Shown here: positions 2,500 to 61,844 of the stretch, piece after piece
Position numbering within the stretch: the first letter of the stretch is position 1
Layout of the letters: each line of letters starts with the position of its first letter
Assembly (NCBI GenBank): GCA_052034955.1
Contig: JBPOHZ010000016.1
Location: 41,273-105,272, forward strand
DNA: 64,000 bases
Direction: 5' to 3'
Source of the DNA: Candidatus Saccharimonadota bacterium
GTDB lineage: Bacteria; Patescibacteriota; Saccharimonadia; Saccharimonadales; AWTP1-31
Made by a program: the position numbers and the translations under genes
Notes under the pieces: model-generated
The model's input: only the letters and a program-made list of their open reading frames with translations
Database searches by the model: none
What the model was told of the DNA's origin: nothing

Positions 2500-3591
2500 T
2501 TACTGCTGCGGAGGAACATCAACCCTAAACGATTGAACCGGTCCGCCAGGCCCCATAACGGCACCGCCACCTTGTCGCTGTGCATCGAGGACTGTAAAGT
2601 TCTTTGTTACCTGAGCCCCGTTATATCCCCCATCGTAGCCTTGTTCCCCACTTAATGGTGCACCCGAGCCCATTGTATCAGCTTGGCTTTCTAAAACTGT
2701 GCGCCGTAGATTATCTCCACCTCCAGTTGTCAATTCTTGGGGAGCTGCAGGAAGCTGATTTGATTCATCAAAAATATGTTCAGTACTAGGACCATTCTCT
2801 GGTATAACTAACATGTCCATAAATATCATATTTTGTCGTCCTTGTTCTTCTGGACTGTTAAAGCCTCTGGACATAATTCTAACGAATGTATTTGTAGGTG
2901 CTCCGGTATTAGGATCATTTACTCTTGCAATAACGCCTTTCACTAACCCTTTATTGTCTGGAGTAGCCTCACCTGAATCAGTCATTATTGCGTATTTATC
3001 TATCCCACGCAATGAGCTCATAAATCCGTCTTCTTTTGACCTGGCTTGATCGGGAGTATCAGCAAATAATGGAAAAAGCTCCTCGATAGTACCGAGCTCC
3101 CCTGAATCTCGTAGCATAGTAGCCCTCTCCATCAATGAAGACAACGAAGCTTTCTCTAAACCAGTCTGTCTACCAATTACTGAAGCTAGAAGTTGGTTGG
3201 CCCCATTTGCGGAGTTATACTTTAAAGAAGAAAAATTTGAGCTACCATCTGCTGCGCTTGTACCCGTAAAGAGCCTTATTGTCCCGAGACCGCCCTCAGC
3301 AACGGCTTCAGCCGCAGCTTGCACTTCGTTAGCTACATCTTGGCCTTTTGTGAAATCTTGATATTCAACAACTGTACTACTACCGCCAAACACCGGTAGT
3401 TCATCAGGTCGAGCGTCACGAATGCGTGCAGCTGGTTCAGAAAAATAAGTGTTGAGGTCATTCATACCAGAGTCTGTTTCTGCTATGTTAACTAATTCCG
3501 GCGCCAAGGCAACAGCAGCCGCGTCACCAGGAGGCAATAATTCTGTAAGCGGAATATTGCCAACCGCGCCTGTTGTTGCTAGTTCTCCCAT
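2500..3591 (-). CDS. Hypothetical protein (363 aa), no recognisable family
   Basis: Long uninterrupted ORF 24 bp downstream of the REC-only response regulator. No TM segment or signal peptide visible. Gly/Ala/Ser-rich termini. Confidence 0.5.
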   Translation of the reverse strand: MGELATTGAVGNIPLTELLPPGDAAAVALAPELVNIAETDSGMNDLNTYFSEPAARIRDARPDELPVFGGSSTVVEYQDFTKGQDVANEVQAAAEAVAEGGLGTIRLFTGTSAADGSSNFSSLKYNSANGANQLLASVIGRQTGLEKASLSSLMERATMLRDSGELGTIEELFPLFADTPDQARSKEDGFMSSLRGIDKYAIMTDSGEATPDNKGLVKGVIARVNDPNTGAPTNTFVRIMSRGFNSPEEQGRQNMIFMDMLVIPENGPSTEHIFDESNQLPAAPQELTTGGGDNLRRTVLESQADTMGSGAPLSGEQGYDGGYNGAQVTKNFTVLDAQRQGGGAVMGPGGPVQSFRVDVPPQQ

Positions 3592-3615: not shown

Positions 3616-4020
3616 TTATGCAGCTAAATGGTGCTTGATGCGCTCAACAACATCGGCTATAACAACCTGAGATTTAACTAGGTAGTCGTCAGCTCCGAGT
3701 GACTTGGCCCGCTCTTTGTCACTATCTTGGCTTAGTGCAGTTAGCATGACAACCTTCACCTTAGCGGTCTCTGGAGTATTTCTAAGGATATCAAGTACAT
3801 CAAATCCGCTAACTTTAGGCATCATAACGTCTAGAACGATTAGGTCTGGCTTGTATTCTAGAGCCCCAGCTAACGCATCTTCACCATTTGGTACACGCTT
3901 TACATCAAAGCCTTCTGCTTGCAGTCGAGTCTGATAAACACTGGCGAGTGCATCGTCATCTTCTACTAATAGAATCTTTGACTGCTTTGTTGGGTTGGGG
4001 TTGTTTGTTGGTTCATCCAT
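3616..4020 (-). CDS. Single-domain response regulator (CheY-like receiver, no output domain)
   Basis: KILLVEDDDA (acidic pocket), DLIVLDVMMP (phospho-Asp), MLTALS (Thr/Ser), DYLVKS (Lys). Confidence 0.85.
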   Translation of the reverse strand: MDEPTNNPNPTKQSKILLVEDDDALASVYQTRLQAEGFDVKRVPNGEDALAGALEYKPDLIVLDVMMPKVSGFDVLDILRNTPETAKVKVVMLTALSQDSDKERAKSLGADDYLVKSQVVIADVVERIKHHLAA

Positions 4021-14982: not shown

Positions 14983-15354
14983 CTATTGTTCTCTGGCGCT
15001 TGATCGCTTAAATTTAGCCAAGACTCGATGATGAAGTCGACCCGAGCCATGCATTTGTTTGTATTTTTTAATTCGATTTTTTAGCTTTTCTTCTACAACA
15101 TCAACGGCTGCAAACATGTTTACAGTAGTCTCTTTTGTTGAAATTGTTTCTTTAGGTAACTTTAATATGACTTCGCACGAACATTCAACACGCTGCTTGA
15201 TCTTTTGTTCCTTTAATCGAACTTCAACATGGGCAGATTCACGCGCCGCCTTTGGCATATACTGATCTAGCTTGCCTATTTTCTTAGAAATATACTTTCT
15301 TAGATCATCGGTCACTTCTGTATGAATACCAGTTATTTCAATTCGTTGTATCAT
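14983..15354 (-). CDS. hpf: Ribosome hibernation promoting factor / RaiA family (short form)
   Basis: MIQRIEITGIHTEVTDDLRKYISKKIGKL... matches the S30AE/HPF N-terminal fold. Sits in the Firmicutes-like hpf-secA position. Confidence 0.85.
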   Translation of the reverse strand: MIQRIEITGIHTEVTDDLRKYISKKIGKLDQYMPKAARESAHVEVRLKEQKIKQRVECSCEVILKLPKETISTKETTVNMFAAVDVVEEKLKNRIKKYKQMHGSGRLHHRVLAKFKRSSAREQ

Positions 15355-16646
15355 ATTTTTTCTTTGCCTCCCATATAAGCTCTTAATACTTCTGGAATTA
15401 CCACATCTCCCTCGGCCGTCTGGTAGTTCTCTAAAATGGCGACTGGCCCCCTGCTTAGCGGCAAGGCCGTAGCGTCATTGGTATGAATAAGATCAACTCC
15501 TGTTTGACGACGAACTCGAGTTTTTAAACGCCGCGCCTGGTAGTCTGTCATATAATCGGCTGTATGAGTTTCACGATATTTTCCTTGCCCTGGCATCCAA
15601 GCGTTTATGTCTATACCTTGAGCGTTTGGCTTACCAATATCAGCCGTGCATTTACTCATTAGTTGATATGGGATTCCAAGCATCGTCATAAGTTTCTCTT
15701 GAATGGCTACCATAAATTGGTGCTCAGCCAAACCTGCCTCAGCTACCCCTAGACTCTCCATCTCGAGCTTGTCAAATTGATGCATCCGGAAAAAGCCTTC
15801 CATGTCCTTACCATATGTACCAGCTTCTTTTCGAAAACTAGTTGCATAGCCGATATAGCGAATTGGCAAGTCAGACTCAGGAATTATCTCATTTGCATGC
15901 ATGCTACCCAGTACATGCTCAGCACTTCCTTGAAGCCAAAGCTCTTCTCCTTCAATTTTATATCGATCGTCGCTCGGCTCAAGACGATCCATAGCATCGT
16001 ACATTTCGGTACGAATCATATATGGAGGAAGTACCGGCTTAAATGGCTTATTACTGACGCTTAGATTATTATCTTTAATAACCTCATCTATAAATTCTTG
16101 GTCGGATAATTTATCGATAACAAATTGTATAATTGCAAATTGTAGCTTTACCAAATCACCTTGTAAGTATGCAAATCTAGCACCAGTTACTTTGGCTGCT
16201 CGTTCTTTGTCCAACCAACCCTTAGCCTCGGCTAACTGCGCATGATTCTTTGGTTCGAAATCAAACTTTGTTGGCTCGCCGACTGTTTTAGTAACTACAT
16301 TCTCGTCTTCTGAAGCACCAATTGGTACGTCTTGCAGAGGCATATTTGGAACTGCCTTTAACAAATTCGTGAAATCATGATCTAACGGTGCTAGCTTTTG
16401 CTCTAGAACAAGAACTTTGTCTTTAAGATCTTTCCCCTTATCTATTTGTTCAGGGCTAGGCTTACCGGCACTTAAACTAGCGCTGTGAGTATTGCGTAAA
16501 GCTCGCGCTTCTTCTAAATCTACTAGTAAATTGCGTCGCTCTTCGTCAACCTTTAGTAAGGCATCTATATCAACTTGGTAACCTTTTTGCTTAGACTTTT
16601 CGGCTACTAATTCTGCATTGTCTCGAATAAACTGAATATCTAACAT
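15351..16646 (-). CDS. serS: Seryl-tRNA synthetase
   Basis: Track ORF trimmed to MLDIQFIRDN. N-terminal coiled-coil arm plus class II core. Confidence 0.95.
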   Translation of the reverse strand: MLDIQFIRDNAELVAEKSKQKGYQVDIDALLKVDEERRNLLVDLEEARALRNTHSASLSAGKPSPEQIDKGKDLKDKVLVLEQKLAPLDHDFTNLLKAVPNMPLQDVPIGASEDENVVTKTVGEPTKFDFEPKNHAQLAEAKGWLDKERAAKVTGARFAYLQGDLVKLQFAIIQFVIDKLSDQEFIDEVIKDNNLSVSNKPFKPVLPPYMIRTEMYDAMDRLEPSDDRYKIEGEELWLQGSAEHVLGSMHANEIIPESDLPIRYIGYATSFRKEAGTYGKDMEGFFRMHQFDKLEMESLGVAEAGLAEHQFMVAIQEKLMTMLGIPYQLMSKCTADIGKPNAQGIDINAWMPGQGKYRETHTADYMTDYQARRLKTRVRRQTGVDLIHTNDATALPLSRGPVAILENYQTAEGDVVIPEVLRAYMGGKEKI

Positions 16647-16672
16647 ATACCCAGTATAACTTAACATTGAGC

Positions 16673-17458
16673 TTATTTCTTGTTTGAAATAGCTTCGAGT
16701 GTAAGCTCCGTCCTACGACGGGCATAACTACAATAATCACATTCCCCACCCATTGCTGCCCGGCCAACAGGTGGCATGTCATCATCCATGCATTCTTTCA
16801 TTGCAATCAGAGTCTTTTCGACCCAAGAATCTTCGCCTACATGTGGAAATACGTTTGTTCTAAATTCCACGACATTATTAAATCCGTCCTTACTAGCATC
16901 TCCATTGGCGTAGACAAAATACCCCGTATCACTTACCTTGTGGTTATTTGCCCTCAGCAACCACTGGTATGTTTCCATCTGTCTTCGGTAGCTATCTTGC
17001 CATCCACCTACAGGACCTAAGCCTGTGATCTCCTTATCCTTGGCTGTTGCCTTATAGTCGACAACGATCAATTCTCCAGCATCATTCACCCAAACGTCAT
17101 CAACAGCTCCAAATACATGAAGATTGGTTGGCTCGTGAAGAGTAAATACCCCAACAAAATTTTCTCTCCAAGTATCTATATCTTTATGAGCAAAAGGCTT
17201 GGCAGCTATATTGAATTCAACTTGCAGAGGATGTTGAGTGCCCGCTTTACGGTGCACATCGAACTCTTTTTTAAATAATTCATCTATAGCTTTGTTGATA
17301 TTAAAAGGCGGCGTATTGGGGCGAGTAATTTTGTGTCTAACATCCAGCCAAAAACACCTTGGACACTGCATAAACAGCTCTATTTTACTTCGACTAACTT
17401 TAAATGGAGCTGTTTGCCCAGGTATGTATGGCTGGCTACGTTCTCTCCAATAATTCAT
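16673..17458 (-). CDS. PD-(D/E)XK nuclease family protein with Cas4/AddB-like Cys cluster
   Basis: GAVDDV...LIVVDYKAT gives D...(D/E)xK. One N-terminal Cys pair (MQCPRCFW) and C-terminal GGECDYCSY suggest an Fe-S or metal cluster. Confidence 0.7.
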   Translation of the reverse strand: MNYWRERSQPYIPGQTAPFKVSRSKIELFMQCPRCFWLDVRHKITRPNTPPFNINKAIDELFKKEFDVHRKAGTQHPLQVEFNIAAKPFAHKDIDTWRENFVGVFTLHEPTNLHVFGAVDDVWVNDAGELIVVDYKATAKDKEITGLGPVGGWQDSYRRQMETYQWLLRANNHKVSDTGYFVYANGDASKDGFNNVVEFRTNVFPHVGEDSWVEKTLIAMKECMDDDMPPVGRAAMGGECDYCSYARRRTELTLEAISNKK

Positions 17459-17485
17459 CAGCTCATTGTACCAGTTAAAACCGGG

Positions 17486-18295
17486 CTAAGGACGAAGGGC
17501 GCCAAAGAATATTTGCCATGCAAGCGCAGATTTAGCAACCAAGCTTAAGATCATATAAACACGCTCACCGTATAAGTAATCGGCCCATTTGCCAACTTTC
17601 TTATACTGAAGATACATATTAATAGCGAAGCTGTTAAAGAATACGAACATTGTTCCGTATATAAAGTAAACAAATGTTGGAATATTACCAGATCCGTAAG
17701 CAGCTATTCCTGCCACATAGATACCAAACACGATCCATGGAACGATACCAGCAACACAACCCAACCAGTAAGGTAGCCAGTCAATCTTCTTCTGCCCTTG
17801 GTTTCTATATTCCATGACTAGCCCCATGCTATTCATCAAGAAGTCCAAAACAAAGATCATAACCAAAGAAGATAGATCATAGATTCCACTTAAGAGCCCG
17901 ATTGCCACCATCATCGTACTGGCGCTTAGTCCGTACTCAATCCAGCGAACTTTATTAAGTCCTTTCTTTAGATCTGATTCATATGTCTTTCGATACTTAG
18001 TTGCTACAAACAGATGAGCAATCGAAGACATCAAAAAGAAGGCAGCTGCTAGATAGACAATGTTTACATTAAAAAGCGTGTGCTGAGCTGTAGCTAGAAC
18101 CGGCCTACCAGCTATCTTTGATGCGATTGTATCTTGGGTTAGGTAATTTGTGATTATAGGCCAACTTACATTGCCGGCAAGCAGCAACACAGCTACTGCC
18201 TGGATAAAATGTAGCCCTGCTAGATATTTATTCCACTTGTTTAATGACTCTATCTTTATTGTTTTTTTGCTCTTGAATCTGTTTAGTAATTTCAT
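17486..18295 (-). CDS. Heliorhodopsin (7-TM retinal protein, inverted topology family)
   Basis: Long motif-level identity to prototype heliorhodopsin 48C12 as I recall it: RWIEYGLSASTMMVAI, YWLGCVAGIVPWIVFGIYV, FFNSFAINMYLQYKKVGKW, ERVYMILSLVAKSALAWQIF. Schiff-base Lys is K255 (codon 17531-17533). Counterion Glu is E120. H29 and H94 are conserved. Confidence 0.85.
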   Translation of the reverse strand: MKLLNRFKSKKTIKIESLNKWNKYLAGLHFIQAVAVLLLAGNVSWPIITNYLTQDTIASKIAGRPVLATAQHTLFNVNIVYLAAAFFLMSSIAHLFVATKYRKTYESDLKKGLNKVRWIEYGLSASTMMVAIGLLSGIYDLSSLVMIFVLDFLMNSMGLVMEYRNQGQKKIDWLPYWLGCVAGIVPWIVFGIYVAGIAAYGSGNIPTFVYFIYGTMFVFFNSFAINMYLQYKKVGKWADYLYGERVYMILSLVAKSALAWQIFFGALRP

Positions 18296-18301
18296 ACCTG
18301 C

Positions 18302-18310
18302 ACTATAACA
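18302..18310 (-). promoter_or_regulatory. Extended -10 promoter (TGTTATAGT), 6 nt upstream of the heliorhodopsin ATG (leaderless candidate)
   Basis: Minus strand reads TGT-TATAGT-gcaggt-ATG. Confidence 0.5.
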
Positions 18311-18335
18311 TATTAAGAAAACCGACCGTCTCCAA

Positions 18336-18344
18336 TGTTATACT
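18336..18344 (+). promoter_or_regulatory. Extended -10 promoter (TGTTATACT), 10 nt upstream of the sortase ATG
   Basis: TGT-TATACT-aatgctatag-ATG. Divergent from the heliorhodopsin promoter within a 59-bp spacer. Confidence 0.45.
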
Positions 18345-18354
18345 AATGCTATAG

Positions 18355-19017
18355 ATGAGATCAAAAATTAAGCTACCACAGCGTAAGACGATTGCCGGCA
18401 GATTTCCTTCTCGTCCGAAGAGATCCCTTAAAACTCGACTAGCCTTGTGGCTGCTGTCGATAATCGCCCTAGTGAGCTTCCTTCTACTTATACTTCCCTA
18501 TTTGCCCAGACTTGGCTTCTTGATTAACCGCCCCAAGATTGATCCCACTAGCTATCAACAAGAAGCCGAAGCAACCAGAAAAGGCGCAGGACTGGCTGTT
18601 GATTCTAAGAAATCTGGAAACCGTTTAATATTGCCCGACATAGGTGTCGACTCTGAGATAATTGAGGGAGCTAATTTATGGGTTATAGGCAAGAACCAAG
18701 GAGTATGGCGAGAATCCAGGGACGTAACCCCTGACAAGGATGGGAATATCGTAATTGCCGGCCATAGATTCTTATACACCGCACGCAATGGTGGCTGGTT
18801 CTACAATCTACCAGAACTAAAGACCGGTAACAGAATCTATATAAAATGGGATTCGAAGACCTATGAATACGAGGTCTACAACACCCGAACCGTAGAACCA
18901 ACCCAAGTAGATATCAGGGATAAAGACCCTAAAGTAAGTCGCAAACTAACCATGTACACTTGTTATCCGCTTGGTAGTACATCGAAACGGTTTGTGGTCG
19001 AAGCCAAGCAGATCTAG
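18355..19017 (+). CDS. Sortase family transpeptidase
   Basis: N-terminal TM anchor, catalytic His (NIVIAGHR), and Cys in the TLxTC-like motif LTMYTCYP. Confidence 0.8.
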   Translation: MRSKIKLPQRKTIAGRFPSRPKRSLKTRLALWLLSIIALVSFLLLILPYLPRLGFLINRPKIDPTSYQQEAEATRKGAGLAVDSKKSGNRLILPDIGVDSEIIEGANLWVIGKNQGVWRESRDVTPDKDGNIVIAGHRFLYTARNGGWFYNLPELKTGNRIYIKWDSKTYEYEVYNTRTVEPTQVDIRDKDPKVSRKLTMYTCYPLGSTSKRFVVEAKQI

Positions 19018-19550
19018 TCAGTCCTTAGGCTAGCAGCAAACTTCTGGCGTAATTTCAACAGTTTAGGATTAATTATTACTTGGCAGTAAGCCAGCTCGGG
19101 ATGCTTCTGAAAGAAGTTCTGGTGTTCATCTTCAGCAGGACAAAAAGTTTCTAGCTCCTTTACTTCTGTGACTATTGGATCATTCCATAATTTTGAAACA
19201 ACTTCCATGGACTTATCGATAGTCAATTTCTGGTCGTTACTCGTATAGAGAATTATTGACCTATACTCTGTACCTTTATCGTTCCCTTGGTAATTTAAGG
19301 TTGTAGGATCATGCATCGCCCAATAGATATCCAATACGTCTTCCAACTTAATAACAGATATATCAAAAGTTACTTTCACCACCTCGGCATGACCGGTTCT
19401 GCCAGACGCTACCTGATAATATCCGGGATCTACCGTATTTCCGCCCGCGTAGCCAGAAATAACTTCCGTTACCCCATTAATCAGTCTATAGCCTGCATCA
19501 AGACACCAAAAACACCCTCCTCCAAGGACTATGCTTTCAGTTTTTGACAT
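19014..19550 (-). CDS. msrA: Peptide-methionine (S)-S-oxide reductase MsrA
   Basis: GGGCFWC active-site motif; 178 aa. Confidence 0.93.
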   Translation of the reverse strand: MSKTESIVLGGGCFWCLDAGYRLINGVTEVISGYAGGNTVDPGYYQVASGRTGHAEVVKVTFDISVIKLEDVLDIYWAMHDPTTLNYQGNDKGTEYRSIILYTSNDQKLTIDKSMEVVSKLWNDPIVTEVKELETFCPAEDEHQNFFQKHPELAYCQVIINPKLLKLRQKFAASLRTD

Positions 19551-19552
19551 AA

Positions 19553-19855
19553 CTATTCTTCTACTTTGACATCATTCCAGAACGCTATATAGTTCGAGAA
19601 ATCTTTTTTAACCTGATCAATTGCAGATGGTAAAGGCTTCGGATAACTCCAAGCATTATCTTTGCTTTCATCTCCGTCTTTGCCTACATTAAAATATTGA
19701 CATACACCCTTCCAAGGGCAAGTGTAGGGAGTCGGGCTCTCGGATAAGAATTCCATTTTTACACTACTGGGTGGAAAATACCAATTCCCTTCAATATAGA
19801 TTAAATCTTTGCGATCTGCTTCGGCAATAACTTGATCTTTCCAAATAGCTTTTAT
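19553..19855 (-). CDS. DUF427 domain protein, probable non-canonical ATA start
   Basis: The track ORF (19553..19756) starts mid-domain. The in-frame upstream extension reads IKAIWKDQVIAEADRKDLIYIEGNWYFPPSSVK, the conserved DUF427 N-terminus (homologues start MKAIW...). AAGGAG lies 6 nt upstream of ATA (19855-19853). There is no ATG/GTG/TTG in frame. Confidence 0.75.
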   Translation of the reverse strand: MKAIWKDQVIAEADRKDLIYIEGNWYFPPSSVKMEFLSESPTPYTCPWKGVCQYFNVGKDGDESKDNAWSYPKPLPSAIDQVKKDFSNYIAFWNDVKVEE

Positions 19856-19865
19856 GATTTTCTCC

Positions 19866-21242
19866 TTAATCTGTTCTTAATGCCTCGATAGGGTCCATCT
19901 TTGCTGCTTTTCGTGCTGGTAAATAACCGGCAAGCATTGCCACGACGATAAGAGTCACAATAAGTATTATTATTTGTGAGGGACGGAAAATAAGTAGATT
20001 CTGTCCTTCTCCTAAATCAAGTTTTTTTGTCACCCAAGGATTTAATGGTATGCCAACTATAATGGCAAAGACCGAGCCAAGCAATCCCCCCAAGAAGCCA
20101 ATCCACCCAGCCTCTAGCATGAACAGCCTGCGTAAATCACGCTTTCGCATTCCGAGTGCTTTCATAAGCCCAATCTCTCTTATTCTTTCGAGGACGCTTA
20201 TGTACTGGGTATTAACAATTCCAAATACTGATGCCATTACGGTAATTAATCCAAAGACCCCCACTAAACCTTGGAGAACGTTAACAATTTGAGTTATGGA
20301 TTTCTGTATCTCTTTACTACTCATAGTAAAGTATTTACGATCCTTAAGATCTGCTTGGGCATCTACAATCTTCTTATTATCCTGTCCATCCTTCACTCTT
20401 ACATAAACATAGCTGTACTTCCCGTAATTTGGGGTGTCCTTAGTTGTATAATCGTAGATTGATTTAGCGTCTTTATCTGATAGATATACTGGTAAAGTTC
20501 CAAACCCTATACTAGTTGCCGCTTTTTTTGTAACCGCTACTATAGTGTACGTTCGAGTTTCAGTTTCGGGTGTTAGAGTTCTAGGATCTACGCCCGAACG
20601 AATAGCTTCGAGCACTTTTTGACCACCGCTATCAACAAATGGCTTCTGTATAGCTATTTGAACTTCCTTTCCTAAAGCAGACGATGCATTCTTGAATCCA
20701 AGCGCTTTTACATATCCGTCTGGTATAGTTGCCTGACCCTCTTTAAGGTCGCCAGAGGCAGGAATCTTACCGATCTCTAATTCTGGTTTTTGTGCTGGAT
20801 TATAAGCCTGTGAGCTCAAAGTAAACTTCTTCTGACCTTCTGTGGTGATGTAGCGTACATTTAAGGGGTAGTTTGCCCTAACACTCTCGACATAAGGTAG
20901 TTTTTCTAAATCTTTAAGGTCCTGAGTAGTTACTTGCTTAAGCTGTAGACTTGAACCATCTCCGCCAACCGTAAAAGAAGAGACCGTTTCGTCGTATTCT
21001 TTTGGTTCGGTTATTGGAGCGCCGGTATTTGAAACTTCTTTATCACGACCAACAATTAGTTCAGCTGGGTCAAAATTACTCGCTACAAGTGTATCGGTAT
21101 AACTTCTTATGCCATTACCGGCAGCAAGTGTGAGAGTCAAGGTAAATCCTCCTACACCAATAGCTAATGAGGTTAAAATAGTCCTTAGCTTTGCACTGGT
21201 TAAACTTCGTCCACTTCTTCGGATTGTATCTTGAATACGCAT
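19866..21242 (-). CDS. ABC transporter permease, FtsX/MacB-type with large extracytoplasmic domain
   Basis: N-terminal TM, about 260-aa external domain, and a C-terminal 3-TM FtsX-like module. Start/stop overlaps the ATPase gene. Confidence 0.85.
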   Translation of the reverse strand: MRIQDTIRRSGRSLTSAKLRTILTSLAIGVGGFTLTLTLAAGNGIRSYTDTLVASNFDPAELIVGRDKEVSNTGAPITEPKEYDETVSSFTVGGDGSSLQLKQVTTQDLKDLEKLPYVESVRANYPLNVRYITTEGQKKFTLSSQAYNPAQKPELEIGKIPASGDLKEGQATIPDGYVKALGFKNASSALGKEVQIAIQKPFVDSGGQKVLEAIRSGVDPRTLTPETETRTYTIVAVTKKAATSIGFGTLPVYLSDKDAKSIYDYTTKDTPNYGKYSYVYVRVKDGQDNKKIVDAQADLKDRKYFTMSSKEIQKSITQIVNVLQGLVGVFGLITVMASVFGIVNTQYISVLERIREIGLMKALGMRKRDLRRLFMLEAGWIGFLGGLLGSVFAIIVGIPLNPWVTKKLDLGEGQNLLIFRPSQIIILIVTLIVVAMLAGYLPARKAAKMDPIEALRTD

Positions 21243-21943
21243 TATTTCTTCTTCCCAGTTTTAACAGTCTTACGCTTGATCTGTTCTATTTTGCCATCCT
21301 TAAGAATAATTTGCACCTGGCACCTTCCCGCCAACTCAGGGTCGTGAGTAACGATCACCAGCGTACTGCCGTTATCTTTATTTATCTTGAATAGCATATT
21401 AATAACCTTGTCGCCAGTTGCGCTATCAAGGTTTCCGGTTGGCTCATCGGCAAATATAAGTTTAGGCTTATTTACGATGGCTCTAGCGATAGCCAAGCGC
21501 TGTTTTTGACCACCCGACAGATTCCTGGCTTTGGTATTTACTTTCTCGCTAAGTTCGACTGCCTCCAGTGCAGCGAGCACCCTCGCCCTACGGTCACGAC
21601 GACCTACTTCGGCTATCTCCAGAGGTAACATAACGTTTTGGTAACATGTCTGACTTCCCTCAACAAAGAACGCCTGGAAGATGAAGCTCATAGACTCGGC
21701 TCTAAAATGATCAATCTGCTTGGTCTTCATTTGCTGCATAATTGTGCCGCCAATGGACACATGCCCGTCGCTCGGTGTATCCAAGCCACTCATAATATGC
21801 ATAAGGGTGGATTTGCCCGAACCACTCTTACCGATAATTGCTACGGTTGAGCCCTCTTTTATGCTCAGATTAATGTCAGATAAGGCTGTAAATGCATTAT
21901 CTTTTTTACCATAGGTCTTCGAAACGTTTTTTACCTCAATCAT
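21242..21943 (-). CDS. ABC transporter ATP-binding protein (MacB/LolD-like)
   Basis: Walker A GKSGSGKST, signature LSGGQKQR, Walker B LIFADEPT. Confidence 0.9.
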   Translation of the reverse strand: MIEVKNVSKTYGKKDNAFTALSDINLSIKEGSTVAIIGKSGSGKSTLMHIMSGLDTPSDGHVSIGGTIMQQMKTKQIDHFRAESMSFIFQAFFVEGSQTCYQNVMLPLEIAEVGRRDRRARVLAALEAVELSEKVNTKARNLSGGQKQRLAIARAIVNKPKLIFADEPTGNLDSATGDKVINMLFKINKDNGSTLVIVTHDPELAGRCQVQIILKDGKIEQIKRKTVKTGKKK

Positions 21944-25341: not shown

Positions 25342-25758
25342 TTAACCTAGATCCTTGGTTTCGACACGCCCCATGCTAACACCCGACAAATCTAAGCCTC
25401 GGGCCCTTTTACTAGTGTAAGTCGTTCTCTTTGCTTTATTCCTAACAAGTTTAAGAGCCTGACGACCAGAGCCATGAGCAATCCGCCGTGCCACAAATTC
25501 TAGCTCATCGCCTTTGTCCATCGACCCTCTATCGAGATCTTTCAGCGCGATACTTGCCTCCGCATCAAGCTTACTTGTCCTAGAGACATAATCCCTGAGC
25601 AACCTTACTCCATTATCCTCCCTTACTGCCCTGTCGGCTAGCTGCTGTGACTTTTCGGCTATTACATCAGATTGATGCCATTCATTAGCTAGAACGTCTT
25701 GTGCAAGCTCATACCAACCTTGTTCAGCTATGAGTTCACTTCTTTCTAAATATTTCAT
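25342..25758 (-). CDS. Hypothetical protein
   Basis: Trimmed to MKYLERSELI (GGAGAA RBS upstream). No family recognised. Confidence 0.5.
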   Translation of the reverse strand: MKYLERSELIAEQGWYELAQDVLANEWHQSDVIAEKSQQLADRAVREDNGVRLLRDYVSRTSKLDAEASIALKDLDRGSMDKGDELEFVARRIAHGSGRQALKLVRNKAKRTTYTSKRARGLDLSGVSMGRVETKDLG

Positions 25759-25783
25759 TTGTTCTCCAACCAACAACAAGATT

Positions 25784-26758: not shown

Positions 26759-27886
26759 TTACCAGAAACGTTTTATATCTACTACTGTAATGACTATGAA
26801 AAGCAACATCAAGATTGCGAAGCCTGTGCCATGAATCTTTTCTTCTTTTTCTTGGCTAAGTGGCCTTCTTAGTACCTTGTGATACAAAAGAGTTACAAAT
26901 AATCTGCCGCCGTCCAACGCAGGAATTGGTAAGACATTCATAATTGCTAAAGTCAGCGAGATAATCGCGATTATCATCAACATGAATTGATACCCCATAA
27001 GGCTGCCGTCTTTTAGAACAACAAATATTCCAACAGGGCCTGAGACCTGGCTACTAGCCTCTTTTCCATTGCCCCGAATCGCATTCCAGAGGGCATTTCC
27101 TAGCCCTTTGAGTGTTTCGATTGTTAGTTGCTTCATCAGCCCCAAAGATACAATTGGAGCCGACCAGGTAGAGCGCTGAACAGTATATTCGGCTGGCTGT
27201 AGCCCCAGGTAACCTTTAGGGTCGTCGGTCTTTTTACTGGCATTAACTTCCTGGCTAGTTCGAAGCTGGGCATCAACAATCTTATCAATTCCATCTCTTT
27301 TAATCTCTAACTGAACTTTTTGGCCCGCAAAGCTAGTAGTAGCATCTGGCAGGTTTTCGGCTTGCTGAATCAGGGCCTTGGTAGTTCCATTACTAAGACC
27401 GATTATCTTATCTCTTGTTTTCAGCCCAGCTTTTTCAGCGGGTGATCCTGGCTCAATATATCCAACTAGTACTTCATTCCGCGTAACTTTGGTATCGCTG
27501 GCAATCGTAAACTGATTTGGGATAATCTTTGGTATTCCCACTAGGGCTAAGAATGTCAGCAACAGGAAAGCTGTTATAAGGTTCATGCCTACGCCGGCAA
27601 CCATTATCTTAACTTTCGTTTTTAGCGGCGCAGCACCAAAGCTTCCCTTGGAAGTTGCCGAGTCATGCTCGCCCTTTAGCTTTACGAAACCGCCTAATGG
27701 CAACCAGTTGATTGTAAGCAGTAGTCCACTGTGTAGCTTTTTACCCCAGGCTTTAGGTGGAAATCCAATTCCAAATTCTTCTACATCTACTCCGCCCTTG
27801 CGAGCAGCTATAAAATGACCATATTCGTGGATGACCACCAAACCTACAAATAGAATTAGTCCAAGTATAAGTAAAAACAGCGACAT
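26759..27886 (-). CDS. Site-2 (RIP) zinc metalloprotease, M50 / RseP-like
   Basis: HEYGHF (HExxH), a central PDZ-like segment, and NVLPIPALDGG. Confidence 0.88.
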   Translation of the reverse strand: MSLFLLILGLILFVGLVVIHEYGHFIAARKGGVDVEEFGIGFPPKAWGKKLHSGLLLTINWLPLGGFVKLKGEHDSATSKGSFGAAPLKTKVKIMVAGVGMNLITAFLLLTFLALVGIPKIIPNQFTIASDTKVTRNEVLVGYIEPGSPAEKAGLKTRDKIIGLSNGTTKALIQQAENLPDATTSFAGQKVQLEIKRDGIDKIVDAQLRTSQEVNASKKTDDPKGYLGLQPAEYTVQRSTWSAPIVSLGLMKQLTIETLKGLGNALWNAIRGNGKEASSQVSGPVGIFVVLKDGSLMGYQFMLMIIAIISLTLAIMNVLPIPALDGGRLFVTLLYHKVLRRPLSQEKEEKIHGTGFAILMLLFIVITVVDIKRFW

Positions 27887-28584
27887 TATTTTCCGAACCT
27901 CCGTTGACGGTGGGCGTAATCATCTAAGGCAACCTGCAGGTCATCTTCCGAGAAAGCCGGCCAATGTACATTAGCAAAGTATAACTCGCTATAAGCTGCT
28001 CGCCACAACATAAAGTTACTAATTCTTTGCTCTCCTGATGTGCGAATAATTAAATCCAAAGGGGGAACGTCTGGTTGATACAGGTTTTGTTCGATTAGCT
28101 CCGGTGTAACCTCTTTAACTTGGGGGTCATCTTTAAGAATCTGGTTTACCGCGCTAGCAATTTCTTGTTGGCCTCCATAATTAAGGCAGAACAAGATGGT
28201 TCCAGCAGTATTATCTTTGGTTCGCTCTTCGGCATTACGCATAGCTTTAATGACTTTATCTGATAGTCGAGTGTCCTCACCGATAAAACAGACTCTAATA
28301 TTCTCTTTGTCTAACTCTGCAACCTGGCTCTTTGCTAACCAAATAAATAAGTCCATTAAATAGGCCACCTCTTCTTTGCTTCGATTCCAATTTTCAGACG
28401 AGAAAACAAACGCCGTCATATACTTAACGCCGCTTTTAAAGGCTGCCTTGCTAATTACCTTAAAGTTATCAGCTCCTTTTTTATGACCTTCCATGGTCGA
28501 TATACCTTGCGACTTTGCCCACCTCCGGTTTCCATCTAGGATTATCCCAAGGTGATTTGGTACAAGTGCTGTTTTTTCAGACAT
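27886..28584 (-). CDS. uppS: Undecaprenyl-diphosphate synthase (cis-prenyltransferase)
   Basis: HLGIILDGNRRWA and IRTSGEQRISNFMLWRAAYSELYF. Confidence 0.93.
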   Translation of the reverse strand: MSEKTALVPNHLGIILDGNRRWAKSQGISTMEGHKKGADNFKVISKAAFKSGVKYMTAFVFSSENWNRSKEEVAYLMDLFIWLAKSQVAELDKENIRVCFIGEDTRLSDKVIKAMRNAEERTKDNTAGTILFCLNYGGQQEIASAVNQILKDDPQVKEVTPELIEQNLYQPDVPPLDLIIRTSGEQRISNFMLWRAAYSELYFANVHWPAFSEDDLQVALDDYAHRQRRFGK

Positions 28585-29424: not shown

Positions 29425-30168
29425 ATGACCACAACTATGGAGCAGGAATCTGCACATGATTTTTATACTTTAGAAGAACTGCATTTAGTAGAGCCTCTAA
29501 TTGAAGAACCTGAGATTCTTTCTAACTGGAAGTTGAATCGTCTTTTTGGCACCTTAATTGTTGCCCAAGCCCTAGAAGAAAGACGCACATTTGATGGGAC
29601 ACCTCGTGTCATTGGCGCCGATGAAGATGGTAAGGCGATAGAAAGTCCTAACTACAAACTGGATACAATGAAAGCTACAAAGGCCCAAAAAGAGCTTCAC
29701 AACCAAATGCGTAGAGATGGCATATACAATAAAGATGAACATGACATTAGAACAAAATGGGGTAGAATTTGGTCTGCACTACGGATAGATGAAATCCCAA
29801 CTGCGATTATCTATCCCCTTGCAGGTGTACATGACTTTTTCGGCAATACTCGTACCCTACTTCCGGCCGAACTAGAATCTCCACAGTTTTACCGAGCGCT
29901 AGAGCTACAAGAAGTTACAAAAGAAGAATTCCTTAAGCATATAAGAGTCGGTGTAATTAATGTTACCCAGGCATTTGGCGTCACAGAACTGACTACCCAG
30001 GAGAATTTCGACATATTAGTAATGTCAGTCATGATCGATCCCGATAATCCTAACTACCCTTCTAAAACAGACATGATTAAGGGTACCGTTAAAGATATTT
30101 GTAGCAAGATTAAACGAGAAGTCCGTAAAGAAATAGCAAAACGTAAAGCCGCAAAACTAGAAAAATAA
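29425..30168 (+). CDS. Hypothetical protein (247 aa), orphan
   Basis: GAGG RBS 7 nt upstream, own promoter and own terminator. No family recognised. C-terminal Lys-rich helix. Confidence 0.55.
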   Translation: MTTTMEQESAHDFYTLEELHLVEPLIEEPEILSNWKLNRLFGTLIVAQALEERRTFDGTPRVIGADEDGKAIESPNYKLDTMKATKAQKELHNQMRRDGIYNKDEHDIRTKWGRIWSALRIDEIPTAIIYPLAGVHDFFGNTRTLLPAELESPQFYRALELQEVTKEEFLKHIRVGVINVTQAFGVTELTTQENFDILVMSVMIDPDNPNYPSKTDMIKGTVKDICSKIKREVRKEIAKRKAAKLEK

Positions 30169-35176: not shown

Positions 35177-35932
35177 TTAAATTGCCTTGTCTCCCCATTC
35201 AGAGAAAGTCAGTACGATAATTGTCACTGCAAAAATAACAAACACTATCTGCCGTCGCAACACTATAGAAGATCTATCGGACTTTTCTAGGTAATAGATG
35301 CCGCCCAGTCCAAAGCCAATTACAGACAGCAGTAATGCTGGCTGGGCTACGGGACCATAAAACAATAGCCAATGCCCAAGCACCCAAGTTAGAGCACCAG
35401 CAAAATATGCCCACACCGCAGACAAGAATCTAACGTGCGACTCCTCAAAGCTGCCAAAAAAGTGTCTGGCAGACATGTAGCAGACTAGCCACGCACCAAC
35501 GACAATTACAGCTAAGGATGCTCCGCCCCAAGCCATAAACAAAGAACCGAGCCCAATTGATTGTGCAACTAAGGCTTGCAGCGATACACCGAAAGATCCA
35601 GATTGAGGCTTCAAGACCAATAGCCAAATGCCGTACAGCAGCGCCCAAAGAAGCTGTAGAGCTCCGCTATTAGCATTAATCATGAACAGTAATGCCGATA
35701 ACCCAACCACAATATCAACCGCATTGGCTCGGATATTTGCCGGCCAGTGCCTAGGCTTAACAGCAAACATTCGCCATTTGCTCAACAGAATAAGAGCCAC
35801 GCCTAATGGAAAAGGCGAAAATTTTAGCCTCACTAAGACTAGCAAGACTACTGGCAACAAGCACATTAGGGCTATGTGGATGAAATGTGAAAACCCTGCT
35901 TTAGGTTTTATTTTTGCTGGTATTTGCCTCAT
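35177..35932 (-). CDS. Hypothetical polytopic membrane protein
   Basis: 251 aa with roughly 7 hydrophobic segments. No family recognised. Confidence 0.55.
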   Translation of the reverse strand: MRQIPAKIKPKAGFSHFIHIALMCLLPVVLLVLVRLKFSPFPLGVALILLSKWRMFAVKPRHWPANIRANAVDIVVGLSALLFMINANSGALQLLWALLYGIWLLVLKPQSGSFGVSLQALVAQSIGLGSLFMAWGGASLAVIVVGAWLVCYMSARHFFGSFEESHVRFLSAVWAYFAGALTWVLGHWLLFYGPVAQPALLLSVIGFGLGGIYYLEKSDRSSIVLRRQIVFVIFAVTIIVLTFSEWGDKAI

Positions 35933-42068: not shown

Positions 42069-42335
42069 CTATTTATCTTGAGTATAGTAAGAAACTTCGT
42101 TCATTAGTGGTAAAACTGGACCTTGCCACAATCGAAGCATTTTTCCTTCGTTATCCATGGCCAATATAGCTGGGTACTGAACGATATCGTGCCTGGCTGC
42201 CATGTCTGCCCCATCTCGAGATTCCAGGCTAATAAGCTCTATCTTACGGCCAGTTTGCCTCGAAAAATCACGGGCAAATGTCTCGATCATGGTCCCGTGG
42301 TCAGATTGAGGATGGTAAAGAATAACCGCTTTCAT
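42069..42335 (-). CDS. Hypothetical small protein (88 aa), possibly a thioredoxin-like fold without a CxxC motif
   Basis: The beta-alpha-beta style pattern MKAVILYHPQSDHG...KIELISL...YPAILAM... is only suggestive. There are no Cys residues. Confidence 0.45.
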   Translation of the reverse strand: MKAVILYHPQSDHGTMIETFARDFSRQTGRKIELISLESRDGADMAARHDIVQYPAILAMDNEGKMLRLWQGPVLPLMNEVSYYTQDK

Positions 42336-42359: not shown

Positions 42360-43298
42360 TTAAGCGTTAAGGTAGAACTCCTCATCTGGAACGTAACCAA
42401 TTGGAAATCTAGCTTGATACTTAGTTCGATCTGCTGCCTCTTCGATACTCTTACCGTTAGATATAACTATTTCTCTTAATAACATTTCTTCTGCAGTCAA
42501 GACTATTGATGAGTTACCGCTTGCCACTCCCATATCAGATGTAACCTTTTTGTCCTCATAGATTCGAACATCGTATAGAAAGCCCGAGTCGTCACTTAGA
42601 TCATTTCGACTTACCTTCCAAATATCTGCATAAGGTACAACTTCTTGATTCCATACGTAAGCCAAAATCATATCAGCATCTTTGTAATATTCGTCATTCG
42701 CATCGATTATCGTATTTACATAAGATTCTAAAGAACCTTTAGCATCTCTTGGAAATGCTTTTTCTAGTTCACCATCGTCTTTTGCCGGGTACAGAACTAC
42801 TGGTTTAGAATTATAGATATATGAAATCGGTAAATACTGTTTTGTAAGAGTACTTCCATCGCCACTCAGCAACAATGAGTCACCCATCTGCCAGGTATTC
42901 ATAAATAATCTCCGCATCATGTTGGAGTACGATTTATCATTTAACTCCAAGTAAAATGGACCTGGGGTTAAACGATAAATTGCCACGATATCATCAAATA
43001 TAAGAATTTCACTTTCTATTGAAAAATTCTCTTTGGGGACATATTTTACTTCTAAGTTTTGCTCTGTGAGTTCTTTATTCTCAGTCCACGAAGCGAATTG
43101 TCTAAGGTTTGTAATCTGTTTAATCGGAGTTTTAAATTTAACAAACTCTTTACGAATTTTCTCCGCTGACTCTTTAGAGATTAAGTCATTTAAATTACCT
43201 AATTCAAAGATGTGATATTGTTTAGCTCGTGCGGATCGTAAGTTAACGTCAATAATCGCTTCAACTACTTCATCTCTATTATGCAGTGCCTGACTCAT
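42360..43298 (-). CDS. Hypothetical protein (312 aa)
   Basis: Uninterrupted ORF; no family recognised. Confidence 0.55.
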   Translation of the reverse strand: MSQALHNRDEVVEAIIDVNLRSARAKQYHIFELGNLNDLISKESAEKIRKEFVKFKTPIKQITNLRQFASWTENKELTEQNLEVKYVPKENFSIESEILIFDDIVAIYRLTPGPFYLELNDKSYSNMMRRLFMNTWQMGDSLLLSGDGSTLTKQYLPISYIYNSKPVVLYPAKDDGELEKAFPRDAKGSLESYVNTIIDANDEYYKDADMILAYVWNQEVVPYADIWKVSRNDLSDDSGFLYDVRIYEDKKVTSDMGVASGNSSIVLTAEEMLLREIVISNGKSIEEAADRTKYQARFPIGYVPDEEFYLNA

Positions 43299-56122: not shown

Positions 56123-57562
56123 TCACCGACTGGTTAGTATATAAAACGCTACGAAGATAATGATTCCGACCGCGGCCCCCATAGCTCCACTAGCAACCGC
56201 CTGCTTGTAAGCTTTCTGATCTGTCATTTGGGGTATTTTGGTTAATTTATCATTTATAATCTCGGGTGTATAAATATTTTGAACACTGTCGTAGTTATTC
56301 AATTCAGAAGACTCTATACCAAGATTCTGCGCTCCTACAGGTATACCCTGATTATCTTTAACCTCATGCCGTCGTTCATAGGCCATCTCAGATTTTATAC
56401 TACTCTGCGATTCCACAGCTTCAGCAACTTTTTGCATGAAAGCTTCATGAGATTCCAAAGCGGTTTCAGGCTTGGTCTTTTCGGTTATCTCCCTAAGCCT
56501 TCTTTCTATTAGTTCGGAGTGTTTTGTACTTTGTTCATTAATATTCGTTGTTTTTTCAACAATTCTGTCTATATTAACTCTTTGGGCGATTGCTTCCGGG
56601 ACTGACTCGCTTGATTTCACTGGCTCCGAATACTCTATTTTTTGTTGTTGTTTCAACATAGTATTTTCTGAATCAATGGATTTCTGTTTAAGTTCTTCGA
56701 TGTCCTTATCGACCCTCTTGAACTCGTGTTTATTGATTGCCTGATTTCTTTTATCGCGCCTAAGGGCTAATCCGTAATTAAGTAGATGTAGACCGGTATT
56801 TACATGCTTATCGTTATAAACTTCAGCTTTTGGCTCACTAACAATAACCTCGCTTCTAGAAGCTTCAGCCATCGGCTCGCTAGATCTATACACTTCTTCG
56901 TTTTGCCTTCTTCGTAGTATCGCCTCTATGCTTTCCGGCTCGGGAACGGGCTGATCGGACTGAACAACTTCATGAGCATCTTCCGTTTGACCTCTCTCAA
57001 CATATGGCCTTAGAGTTGTTGCATCAAAGAATGGCTCAACTGGTTCCGGTTTAATATCCTCTATCCGCTCTAATGGTGCGTCGGCTTCGATTTCAGTAGG
57101 TAGCTCTGGAGTACTTGCTACTTCGGTATCTGGTGCAGTTGGTGGCCAATTTTCTTCTCTTTCGGTTGATGCAACTGGTTCAGGGACCTCAACGACAGGT
57201 AAACTTGTTGATTCAGTGCCCTCTACTAGCTCACTCTTATCTTCGACGACAAGCATATTCCTACTAAACAACTTCTTAAACCTATCGTATCGTCCAATCC
57301 AACCGGAAGTTTCTTTACCAGTGCTCTTCTCTACATTAGTTGGAGTACTATCATCATCGTCATCTTCTTCCTTATCATCTTCATCTTTTTCTTTTGATTT
57401 TTCCTTGGGTTTTTCTACCTCTTTTGGCGGTTCACCGAGTAATCTTGCCCAATAGCCCTCACTACCCTTCCACCTACTAACCCTACTGCGTCTGTCATCA
57501 ATAGTAGATTCATGGCTGTCGTCTTCTGGTTGCTCTTGGCTGAACTTGGGTCGTTCTTCCAT
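56123..57562 (-). CDS. Hypothetical acidic protein with a single C-terminal TM segment (tail-anchored topology)
   Basis: 479 aa, Glu/Asp/Lys-rich, no N-terminal signal peptide. C-terminal end is AMGAAVGIIIFVAFYILTSR. Confidence 0.55.
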   Translation of the reverse strand: MEERPKFSQEQPEDDSHESTIDDRRSRVSRWKGSEGYWARLLGEPPKEVEKPKEKSKEKDEDDKEEDDDDDSTPTNVEKSTGKETSGWIGRYDRFKKLFSRNMLVVEDKSELVEGTESTSLPVVEVPEPVASTEREENWPPTAPDTEVASTPELPTEIEADAPLERIEDIKPEPVEPFFDATTLRPYVERGQTEDAHEVVQSDQPVPEPESIEAILRRRQNEEVYRSSEPMAEASRSEVIVSEPKAEVYNDKHVNTGLHLLNYGLALRRDKRNQAINKHEFKRVDKDIEELKQKSIDSENTMLKQQQKIEYSEPVKSSESVPEAIAQRVNIDRIVEKTTNINEQSTKHSELIERRLREITEKTKPETALESHEAFMQKVAEAVESQSSIKSEMAYERRHEVKDNQGIPVGAQNLGIESSELNNYDSVQNIYTPEIINDKLTKIPQMTDQKAYKQAVASGAMGAAVGIIIFVAFYILTSR

Positions 57563-60570: not shown

Positions 60571-61377
60571 ATGTATTTGGCGGTTGATATTGGTGCAACA
60601 AAAATTCTATTGGCTGTTTTTACTGCCGATGGAAAAGTAGTCGAAAAACTTAAATTTCCAACCGACAAAACCTATCCAGCAATGATCAATAGTCTGTCAG
60701 AACAGATAAAATTACTACAAAACCAAAATTTTAAACTAGCAGTTGTTGCAGTACCAGGAAGACTTGATAGAAAGAAAGGAATCGCAATCGCATTCGGAAA
60801 TCGTGACTGGCGTAATGTTGCAATTACCCATGATGCCGAAAAGATTATTGGATGCCCTGTAGTTATAGAGAATGATGCCAAACTGGCTGCACTTTCCGAG
60901 GCCATTCTTATCAAAGAAAGTTATAAAAAAGTACTTTATGTAACTATAAGCACTGGAATAAGTTCAGGACTTGTCGTAGATGGTATTTTAGATCCAGAAT
61001 TAATCGACAGTGAAAGTGGCCAAATGTGGTTTGATCACAATGGCAAAATGCAACAGTGGGAAGACTTTGCATCCGGAAGAGCTATTGTGGCCAAATATGG
61101 AAAGCGCGCAAGTGAAATCGAAGACCCGAAAATATGGAAAGAAATCTCTAAAAATATTGCCTTGGGATTAAGAGAGCTAATCGCAATCATTCAACCTGAT
61201 GTTATCGTCCTGGGCGGTGGAGTCGGAACACATTACGACAAGTTCAAGTCGGCTCTATCTGCCGAACTAAAGGCCTATGAACTACCAATTGCCCCAACTC
61301 CACCAATCCAAAAAGCCAAGAATCCCGAGGAAGCGGTAATATTTGGCTGTTATCAGATGGCAATAAATGCAAAATGA
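60571..61377 (+). CDS. ROK family protein (glucokinase-like sugar kinase)
   Basis: LAVDIGATKILLAV, VPGRLD and ENDAKLAALSEA motifs. Confidence 0.75.
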   Translation: MYLAVDIGATKILLAVFTADGKVVEKLKFPTDKTYPAMINSLSEQIKLLQNQNFKLAVVAVPGRLDRKKGIAIAFGNRDWRNVAITHDAEKIIGCPVVIENDAKLAALSEAILIKESYKKVLYVTISTGISSGLVVDGILDPELIDSESGQMWFDHNGKMQQWEDFASGRAIVAKYGKRASEIEDPKIWKEISKNIALGLRELIAIIQPDVIVLGGGVGTHYDKFKSALSAELKAYELPIAPTPPIQKAKNPEEAVIFGCYQMAINAK

Positions 61378-61844
61378 CAAAACTACTCGAAAAAATTATT
61401 AACGATCACCCTAAGATAAATTTCGAACCCAAAGACAGTTTTTCTTGGTGGCCCAAAAAGCAAACCGTTAATTACGTACTAGAAAAACTGTCTGATGATG
61501 CCGGTAGTTGGTCGCTGTTACATGAAGTTGGTCATGGAAAACTTGGACATCAGAAACACGGAACCGATTTTAATCTGTTAAAACTTGAGATTGATGCTTG
61601 GAAAGAAGCGAAAGTTCTTGCCAAGAAATACGGTGTAAGTATAGATCAGGAGCATATCGAAAATTGCCTAGATTCATATAGAGACTGGCTCTATCTTAGA
61701 AGCACCTGTCCAACATGCACTAGCACTAGCCAACAGATAAGCACTAGCACTTATCGTTGTTTCAATTGCAACACTGAATGGAAGGTGTCTTCGCCAAGAC
61801 AATGCCGCCCATACCGAATGCTTAATAAAAAAGAACCCCGGTAA
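61374..61844 (+). CDS. Hypothetical protein with HExxH motif and C-terminal zinc-ribbon-like Cys pairs
   Basis: LLHEVGHGKLGH, then CPTC...CFNC. ATGA overlap with the ROK gene. Confidence 0.5.
   Translation: MTKLLEKIINDHPKINFEPKDSFSWWPKKQTVNYVLEKLSDDAGSWSLLHEVGHGKLGHQKHGTDFNLLKLEIDAWKEAKVLAKKYGVSIDQEHIENCLDSYRDWLYLRSTCPTCTSTSQQISTSTYRCFNCNTEWKVSSPRQCRPYRMLNKKEPR

Follow-up and report, generated by a model that had tools for sequence, protein, structure and literature searches.

An intact heliorhodopsin of the Saccharibacterial clade, an accessory gene at one fixed site of a housekeeping gene block

The stretch analyzed here, hereafter the window, comprises 64,000 nucleotides (64 kb) of contig JBPOHZ010000016.1 from a Candidatus Saccharimonadota bacterium. 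On its minus strand, positions 17486 to 18295 hold the gene for a heliorhodopsin (HeR) of 269 aa with seven transmembrane helices and an N-terminus predicted to be cytoplasmic, encoded by an uninterrupted open reading frame (ORF) of 269 codons with an ATG start and a stop codon. The protein matched the Pfam family PF18761 (Heliorhodopsin) over the complete profile (positions 1–242 of 242; E=1.2e-87, 293.7 bits against a cutoff of 26.7), and no other Pfam family besides. It also matched the NCBIfam equivalog model NF038020 (‘heliorhodopsin HeR’) with 301.6 bits against a cutoff of 100, and this model would label the window protein as HeR automatically. In a search of all PDB chains, heliorhodopsins alone were matched, namely TaHeR (6is6, E=8e-64), 48C12 (6su3/6uh3, ~1e-51) and the eukaryotic Cv06 (9vfc, 4e-42), with an identity of ~48% to TaHeR and ~45% to 48C12. 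With regard to type-1 rhodopsins, PF01036 gave no match at E<0.01, and the helix-7 motif of the protein is SxxxK, not DxxxK.

An AlphaFold2 model of the window HeR, built on 26 relatives (mean predicted local distance difference test, pLDDT, of 82; predicted TM-score, pTM, of 0.78), displayed seven long helices and a beta-hairpin between helices 1 and 2, with strands at residues 45–54 and 67–77. When this model was compared with the PDB by Foldseek, the first ten hits were solved HeR chains, with TM-scores of 0.83–0.94 and a root-mean-square deviation (rmsd) of 1.9–2.6 Å; for TaHeR, TMq was 0.86, TMt 0.94 and the rmsd about 2 Å. Type-1 rhodopsins reached a TM-score of only about 0.6, at 10–16% identity.

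The four blocks that an original prediction for this gene had quoted as 48C12-like were all recovered in the phmmer alignment to 48C12 (PDB 6su3_X), where, from block 1 to block 4, RWIEYGLSASTMMV of the window protein pairs with RWVEYSLSSSVMIV, YWLGCVAGIVPWI with FWFGCIAGIVPWI, FFNSFAINMYLQYKKVGKW with FFNSFALVQYLQYKGKGKW and ERVYMILSLVAKSALAWQIFFGAL with ERAYIVLSLVAKSALAWQIFSGTL. Residue correspondences were mapped through alignments to 48C12 and TaHeR, and conservation within the clade was assessed on 26 Saccharibacterial HeRs of 63–74% identity. The retinal Schiff-base lysine is K255 (codon AAA, 17531–17533; minus strand, as for all residues below), which corresponds to K241 of 48C12 and K238 of TaHeR and is invariant in all 26 sequences, while S251 (17543–17545), the serine of the SxxxK motif (SLVAK) of helix 7, corresponds to S237 and S234, respectively. 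The counterion glutamate, E120 in RWIEY (codon GAG, 17936–17938), aligns with 48C12 E107 and TaHeR E108, and this position holds E in 25 relatives and D in one. The His pair near the retinal pocket is formed by H29 (codon CAT, 18209–18211; H23 in both 48C12 and TaHeR) and H94 (codon CAT, 18014–18016; 48C12 H80, TaHeR H82), both invariant in 26 of 26. The original prediction, which had called the gene a heliorhodopsin and had named K255, E120 and H29/H94 as the Schiff-base lysine, the counterion and the His pair, was thus upheld on each of these points, since the profile searches (PF18761, NF038020), the alignments to TaHeR and 48C12 and the AlphaFold2/Foldseek comparison all agreed. Given the full family profile, the HeR fold and the chromophore, counterion and His residues, the gene, intact and genuine, encodes an ordinary prokaryotic heliorhodopsin that belongs to the clade of the Saccharibacteria (Saccharimonadia); it displays every heliorhodopsin feature that can be tested on sequence, and those of type-1 rhodopsins are missing from it.

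A further set of residues, Y176, C180, G183, F220, N221 and A224, belongs to the lateral-fenestration stretch of helices 5–6 (17624–17770) and corresponds to F162, C166, G169, F206, N207 and A210 in 48C12 numbering. According to a preprint (10.1101/2025.11.27.691015), these residues form the lateral fenestration and a putative carotenoid site of HeRs. F220 and A224 were invariant in the 26 relatives, G183 was G in 25 of them, and position 176 was occupied by Y or F; N221 was variable in the clade (N in 12, S in 8, M in 3, others in the remainder). Over the whole alignment, 72 columns were invariant, and the HeR is under purifying selection. The mean majority frequency was 0.83 both in intracellular loop 1 (ICL1, residues 99–114) and in ICL3, and 0.92 in helix 7. 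With the helix boundaries of the AlphaFold2 model, 15 of the 46 residues predicted to face the cytoplasm were K or R, as opposed to 3 of 54 outside, and the N-terminal tail carried a net charge of +7, a distribution that predicts the inverted, family-defining topology with the N-terminus inside and the C-terminus outside.

Thousands of HeR relatives were retrieved from a search of 5.8 billion proteins. The top 120 were 62–74% identical to the window protein, with the exception of an identical entry (P0001) found in NCBI and Logan, and those members that bore a name were Candidatus Saccharibacteria, Saccharimonadales or Patescibacteria; in NCBI, close relatives are named ‘heliorhodopsin HeR [Candidatus Saccharibacteria bacterium]’. 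The identical gene was independently assembled in a Logan run, on a contig of 3.1 kb with the same order of HeR, PDDEXK nuclease and seryl-tRNA synthetase (SerRS). Among the GTDB species representatives, a HeR was encoded in at least 572 stretches. Of these, the best 80 came almost exclusively from metagenome-assembled genomes (MAGs) of Saccharibacteria/Saccharimonadales and had the gene order of the window across more than 10 genes. As both the HeR and its neighbours have their nearest relatives in Saccharibacteria MAGs that share the gene order of the window, the host is a reduced-genome, episymbiont-type bacterium of the candidate phyla radiation (CPR), within the Saccharibacteria. HeR relatives at 52–61% identity were also observed on eight contigs (L036, L042, L056, L020, L022, L044, L061 and L067), the bins of which were Methanofastidiosum (1.6 kb), Izimaplasma, Dormiibacterota, WWE3, Dojkabacteria and Woykebacteria; these are either cases of lateral transfer of a Saccharibacterial-type HeR or mis-binned short contigs.

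The window itself is 93% coding, with a GC content of about 0.43, and contains 62 ORFs of at least 70 aa. Because 49 of these lie on the minus strand and the GC skew is negative along the whole window, the stretch probably belongs to a single replichore in which the minus strand is the leading one. Pfam scans covered 61 of the 62 ORFs and matched almost exclusively housekeeping functions, such as translation factors, five aminoacyl-tRNA synthetases, SecA, FtsZ/A/E/X and ParAB, together with a class II ribonucleotide reductase, PriA, IF2 and several proteases. Scans of the 64 kb for tRNA genes and Rfam families found neither. The picture of a streamlined, housekeeping-dense locus in a reduced-genome, episymbiont-type organism, which had been drawn beforehand, was therefore confirmed by the coding density, by the Pfam matches and by the Saccharibacterial relatives and their synteny.

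No carotenoid synthase, desaturase or cyclase, Blh/Brp, RPE65 or type-1 rhodopsin family was found by Pfam among the 61 window ORFs, and NCBIfam returned no match for the eight ORFs without a Pfam match; the earlier claim that no crt- or blh-type gene is present in these 64 kb accordingly held. The sole isoprenoid enzyme encoded in the window is an undecaprenyl-diphosphate synthase (27886–28584). A His-rich, polytopic membrane protein of 251 aa (35177–35932, minus strand) was considered as a hidden Blh and rejected, with no match in Pfam at E<5 or in NCBIfam at E<1; its ORF overlaps the start of a gene for an HtrA-like protease. Seven more ORFs had no protein-family match (2500–3591, 25342–25779, 29425–30168, 42069–42335, 42360–43298, 56123–57562 and 61374–61844). 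The one at 56123–57562 encodes a highly acidic, low-complexity protein of 479 aa with a C-terminal transmembrane helix, and a 363-aa protein without family match adjoins a stand-alone response-regulator receiver (3616–4020). With respect to the source of the chromophore, Jaffe et al. 2022 (PMC9296517) described rhodopsin-bearing Saccharibacteria without blh in lakes that hold blh on Actinobacteria scaffolds, and they proposed, and partly tested, that Saccharibacteria scavenge retinal from their hosts, with Actinobacteria as the probable source. The TaHeR organism was likewise reported to be devoid of a retinal pathway, and the TaHeR apoprotein to bind retinal fast through its opening (PMC9296517).

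Downstream of the HeR gene, at a distance of 27 bp, lies the gene for a Cas4/RecB-like PD-(D/E)XK nuclease of 261 aa (16673–17458, minus strand; PF12705, E=4.6e-12), which scored 34.5 bits against TIGR00372 cas4, under the cutoff, and beside which no CRISPR array was found. In 33 Saccharibacterial orthologues of this nuclease, the invariant residues were C32, C35, C240 and C243, D120/D121, D134-Y-K136 and Q160xxxY164; the protein is 60–89% identical between loci, and its gene is nearly always located directly upstream of SerRS-HPF-SecA. In the window, the SerRS gene (15351–16667, minus strand) follows 5 bp after the nuclease gene, HPF overlaps SerRS by 4 bp, and SecA comes next on the same strand. 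By virtue of its position, the HeR is probably co-transcribed with the Cas4-like nuclease and SerRS, and SerRS, HPF and SecA probably belong to the same transcription unit. No terminator-like site was found by consensus scan within the run from HeR to SerRS.

On the other side, an intergenic region of 59 bp (18296–18354), in which or just beyond which the HeR promoter must lie, separates the HeR from a divergent sortase gene (18355–19017, plus strand; Pfam Sortase, E=1e-24). A promoter-like TTGATC-16 nt-TATAAC element was read by eye on the minus strand at about 18336–18363; since the consensus scan of the 14.8–20 kb region revealed no enrichment (10 promoter-like sites versus 11.8 expected, and 4 terminator-like sites versus 3.5 expected), we infer only weakly that this element may act as the HeR promoter. 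Further upstream follow MsrA (19014–19550, minus strand; PMSR, E=1e-55) and a DUF427-like ORF of 67 aa (19553–19756, minus strand), which corresponds to the C-terminal two thirds of a protein of 100–117 aa that, in relatives, is located between the ABC permease and MsrA; the window ORF appears to be truncated or differently started. A MacB/FtsX-type ABC transporter (19866–21943) lies past DUF427, MsrA and the opposite-strand sortase, as seen from the HeR. With regard to the envelope, HeRs are described as confined to monoderms in the preprint 10.1101/2025.11.27.691015, and the adjoining sortase gene and the Saccharibacterial host are consistent with a Gram-positive-like envelope.

The genes within four positions of the HeR were clustered in 79 related GTDB loci, which yielded the consensus order ProS-GreA-LysS-ABC-DUF427-MsrA-(sortase)-HeR-(HAD)-(RumA-like)-(RsmE)-PDDEXK-SerRS-HPF-SecA. 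In this set, the nuclease was present at most four genes downstream of the HeR in 24 loci, MsrA at most three genes upstream in 20, and an ABC permease within four genes in 19. As a control, loci were anchored on the nuclease in JGI metagenomes, of which 13 had a SerRS-type block and at least 5 kb of upstream sequence. The HeR was present in 7 of these loci and absent from 6, and both kinds were interleaved when ordered by nuclease similarity. Examples without HeR are L104 (ABC permease-MsrA-PDDEXK-SerRS-HPF) and L094 (MsrA-HAD-RumA-PDDEXK-SerRS), as well as L091, L087, L117 and L127; in such loci, MsrA holds the same upstream position and the nuclease is likewise found upstream of SerRS. Since the same block thus occurs with the HeR and without it, its neighbours being unchanged, the HeR is an accessory gene whose gain or loss takes place at a single fixed position within a block of housekeeping genes. 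A functional link to the neighbours based on adjacency was consequently dropped, because the block is equally common without the HeR (7 loci with, 6 without); adjacency is inherited synteny and no evidence for a partner, and no partner can be identified from the locus.

In most relatives, HeR and nuclease are separated by further genes (e.g., L003:10811–14324 and L006:10793–12884). The window junction (17459–17485) contains none of the RumA/TrmA-like (~420 aa), RsmE (~227 aa) and HAD (~208 aa) genes, nor are these found elsewhere in the 64 kb; they were either lost from the window locus or never present there. A compact HeR-nuclease junction was also seen in L032, L051, L112 and L113. The intervening genes of ~420 and 227 aa were examined as photolyase- or glutamine synthetase-like partners and discarded, their motifs reading as those of a putative RumA/TrmA-like TRAM-SAM methyltransferase and of RsmE, respectively. 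In two distant Saccharibacterial loci (L045:10001–13000 and L074:7800–11000), a MacB-type ABC ATPase and permease directly follow the HeR on the same strand, unlike in the clade of the window, where the ABC genes lie upstream of it. The ABC transporter is the only neighbour that falls loosely into a published class of HeR partners, the published transporters being of a different type.

Based on analogy with characterized relatives, we consider it likely that the window HeR acts as a slow-cycling, non-pumping light sensor or regulator, which is loaded with exogenous all-trans retinal through the conserved lateral fenestration. The apoprotein would bind all-trans retinal, which the cell itself would not produce and which would enter by the fenestration from the membrane or the environment, the likeliest source being neighbours or hosts with carotenoids and blh, such as Actinobacteria. 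Light would then isomerise the retinal, and the Schiff-base proton would move to the cluster of E120, His residues and water, not across the membrane, which would give rise to a long-lived intermediate without net ion transport. This intermediate could alter the conserved cytoplasmic surface (the ICL1 helix, residues 99–114, and ICL3) and, in this way, modulate a partner protein. Regulation by HeRs through protein-protein contact has been described for glutamine synthetase, photolyase and an ABC transporter/exporter (Kim et al. 2024, PMC11109279). None of the ten neighbour classes listed in that work (glutamine and NAD+ synthetases, photolyase, MerR, TerC, ABC transporter, short-chain dehydrogenase/reductase, alpha/beta hydrolase, DUF2177 and DUF2238) is adjacent to the window HeR, whose same-strand neighbours are the nuclease and SerRS. 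A role against light-induced oxidative stress has been proposed for the HeRs of CPR bacteria (PMC8612252, PMC9166423); the nearby MsrA is compatible with such a role and, in view of the control loci, was not counted as evidence for it.

Several considerations weigh against this sensor reading. Retinal binding, the photocycle and the lack of ion transport are extrapolated from relatives that are only 45–48% identical, and there is no general agreement on the physiological output of prokaryotic HeRs. Moreover, Actinobacteria and Firmicutes are the source of the published partners (glutamine synthetase, photolyase and ABC exporter). A retinal pathway was found to be absent from the 64-kb window, and such genes could lie elsewhere in the genome. 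Finally, the preprint 10.1101/2025.11.27.691015 presents HeRs as carotenoid-antenna light harvesters and not as sensors.

A functional coupling of the HeR to one of its neighbours, be it the Cas4-like nuclease (light-linked DNA repair, by analogy with the pair of HeR and photolyase), MsrA (repair of oxidative damage) or the MacB-type ABC transporter two genes further upstream, could draw on the co-directional arrangement of HeR, nuclease and SerRS, with gaps of 27 and 5 bp and no terminator-like site, on the recurrence of nuclease, MsrA and ABC permease in 24, 20 and 19 of the 79 loci, and on the ABC ATPase and permease that directly follow the HeR in L045 and L074. It has precedents in the association with oxidative-stress genes (PMC8612252) and in the photolyase and ABC transporter partners (PMC11109279). 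We nevertheless regard such a coupling as unlikely: 6 of the 13 control loci have the same block without HeR, in most relatives HeR and nuclease have between them one to four unrelated genes with housekeeping functions (HAD hydrolase, RumA-like and RsmE rRNA methyltransferases), and the nuclease, which in the same loci is better conserved (up to 89%) than the HeR (70–74%), stays with SerRS and not with the HeR. On the basis of these HeR-less blocks, the intervening genes and the attachment of the nuclease to SerRS, the adjacency is explained by inherited synteny. A very improbable extension of the sensor reading is that holo-HeR forms only upon contact with a retinal- or carotenoid-producing host or neighbour, so that the protein would work as a coincidence detector of host presence and light and would tune a nearby housekeeping process through ICL1, its targets being, for example, the Cas4-like nuclease, Msr-type repair or the MacB-type exporter; if true, this would be an episymbiont-specific use of a heliorhodopsin.

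A role in energy conversion or transport, either as a two-antenna harvester with exogenous xanthophylls recruited to its fenestration or as a light-gated proton transporter like some HeRs of giant viruses, appears decidedly unlikely, even though a host with minimal energy metabolism would gain from it, Saccharibacteria do use type-1 rhodopsin pumps (PMC9296517), and the carotenoid-site motif of the preprint is present in the window HeR (the aromatic pair Y176/F220, the small residues C180/A224, and G183). The HeRs for which ion transport has been demonstrated fall into a mainly viral subfamily without carotenoid site, and carotenoid binding in HeRs comes from docking, not from measurement (10.1101/2025.11.27.691015). 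The window HeR, by contrast, carries the carotenoid site and is nearest to TaHeR and 48C12. Ion transport was reportedly not found in the original studies of these two proteins. In addition, N221, the proposed carotenoid positioner, is not conserved in the clade, and antenna binding alone would give no energy-conserving output. More improbable still would be a relic gene, either decaying or lacking its chromophore, in a genome unable to make retinal. Such an explanation would fit the window without a retinal pathway and the dispensability of the HeR in sister lineages; however, the ORF is intact and of full length, the catalytic and pocket residues have all been kept, the 72 columns mentioned above are invariant, and a Logan run yielded an independent assembly of the identical gene with the same neighbours.

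The occurrence of HeRs in this lineage is well documented. Chiriac et al. 2022 (PMC9166423) recovered 115 rhodopsins from 1326 CPR genomes, 17 of them predicted proton pumps and the rest HeRs, and 80 of about 98 CPR HeRs were found in Saccharimonadia, with SLVAK, which is exactly the motif of the window HeR, as one of the commonest helix-7 motifs. The suggestion in the original prediction that a HeR in such an organism is notable was hence an overstatement, HeRs being common in Saccharimonadia (PMC9166423) and scavenging having already been argued (PMC9296517). As Saccharimonadia HeRs have been catalogued, retinal scavenging has been published and an identical protein is present in NCBI and Logan, the find, though correct, is an ordinary one, both its kind and its lineage having been known before. 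Its significance beyond a correct annotation is small, as it adds one more intact HeR to a catalogued clade, in a lineage argued to depend on external retinal. A useful by-product is the negative result that the operon link that would join the HeR to the Cas4-like nuclease and to SerRS, or else to MsrA, is inherited synteny; for this reason, the locus does not make the signalling target of prokaryotic HeRs more testable. The pattern of Saccharimonadales loci with and without the HeR at this single fixed site could, in turn, provide a clean natural comparison for phylogenetic profiling.

Among known systems, the best solved match is TaHeR from a Thermoplasmatales archaeon (PDB 6IS6, 7U55; ~48% over 245 aligned residues). 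Both proteins have in common the lysine, the glutamate, the two histidines, SxxxK, the pocket residues M227 and A125 (window numbering) and the Y/C/G/F/N/A fenestration. The TaHeR organism is archaeal and, like the window locus, is without a retinal pathway (PMC9296517). Compared with TaHeR, the beta-hairpin loop of extracellular loop 1 is ~6 residues longer in the window HeR and the turn between helices 5 and 6 is 5 residues longer, and the N-terminal tail is different and strongly basic. 48C12 from freshwater Actinobacteria (PDB 6SU3, 6UH3; ~45% identity, E=1e-51) shares the lysine, the glutamate and the His pair, and differs in its pocket (48C12 Q213 versus window M227, S112 versus A125, and N138 versus D151) and in the host phylum. 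SacR, the type-1 rhodopsins described by Jaffe et al. 2022 (PMC9296517), come from the same host group and also take up external retinal fast through an opening; they are, however, PF01036 proteins of normal topology which function as outward proton pumps with a DTS motif, whereas the window protein matches PF18761 only. The closest counterparts are the HeRs of Saccharimonadia and other CPR bacteria (Chiriac et al. 2022, PMC9166423), which belong to the same clade (62–74% identity, about 270 aa, SLVAK). The Saccharimonadia HeRs lie at the same site as that of the window, with MsrA/LysS on one side and the PDDEXK-SerRS block on the other; the window locus differs from most of theirs in detail only, in that the HeR abuts the nuclease gene and HAD, RumA-like and RsmE are missing.

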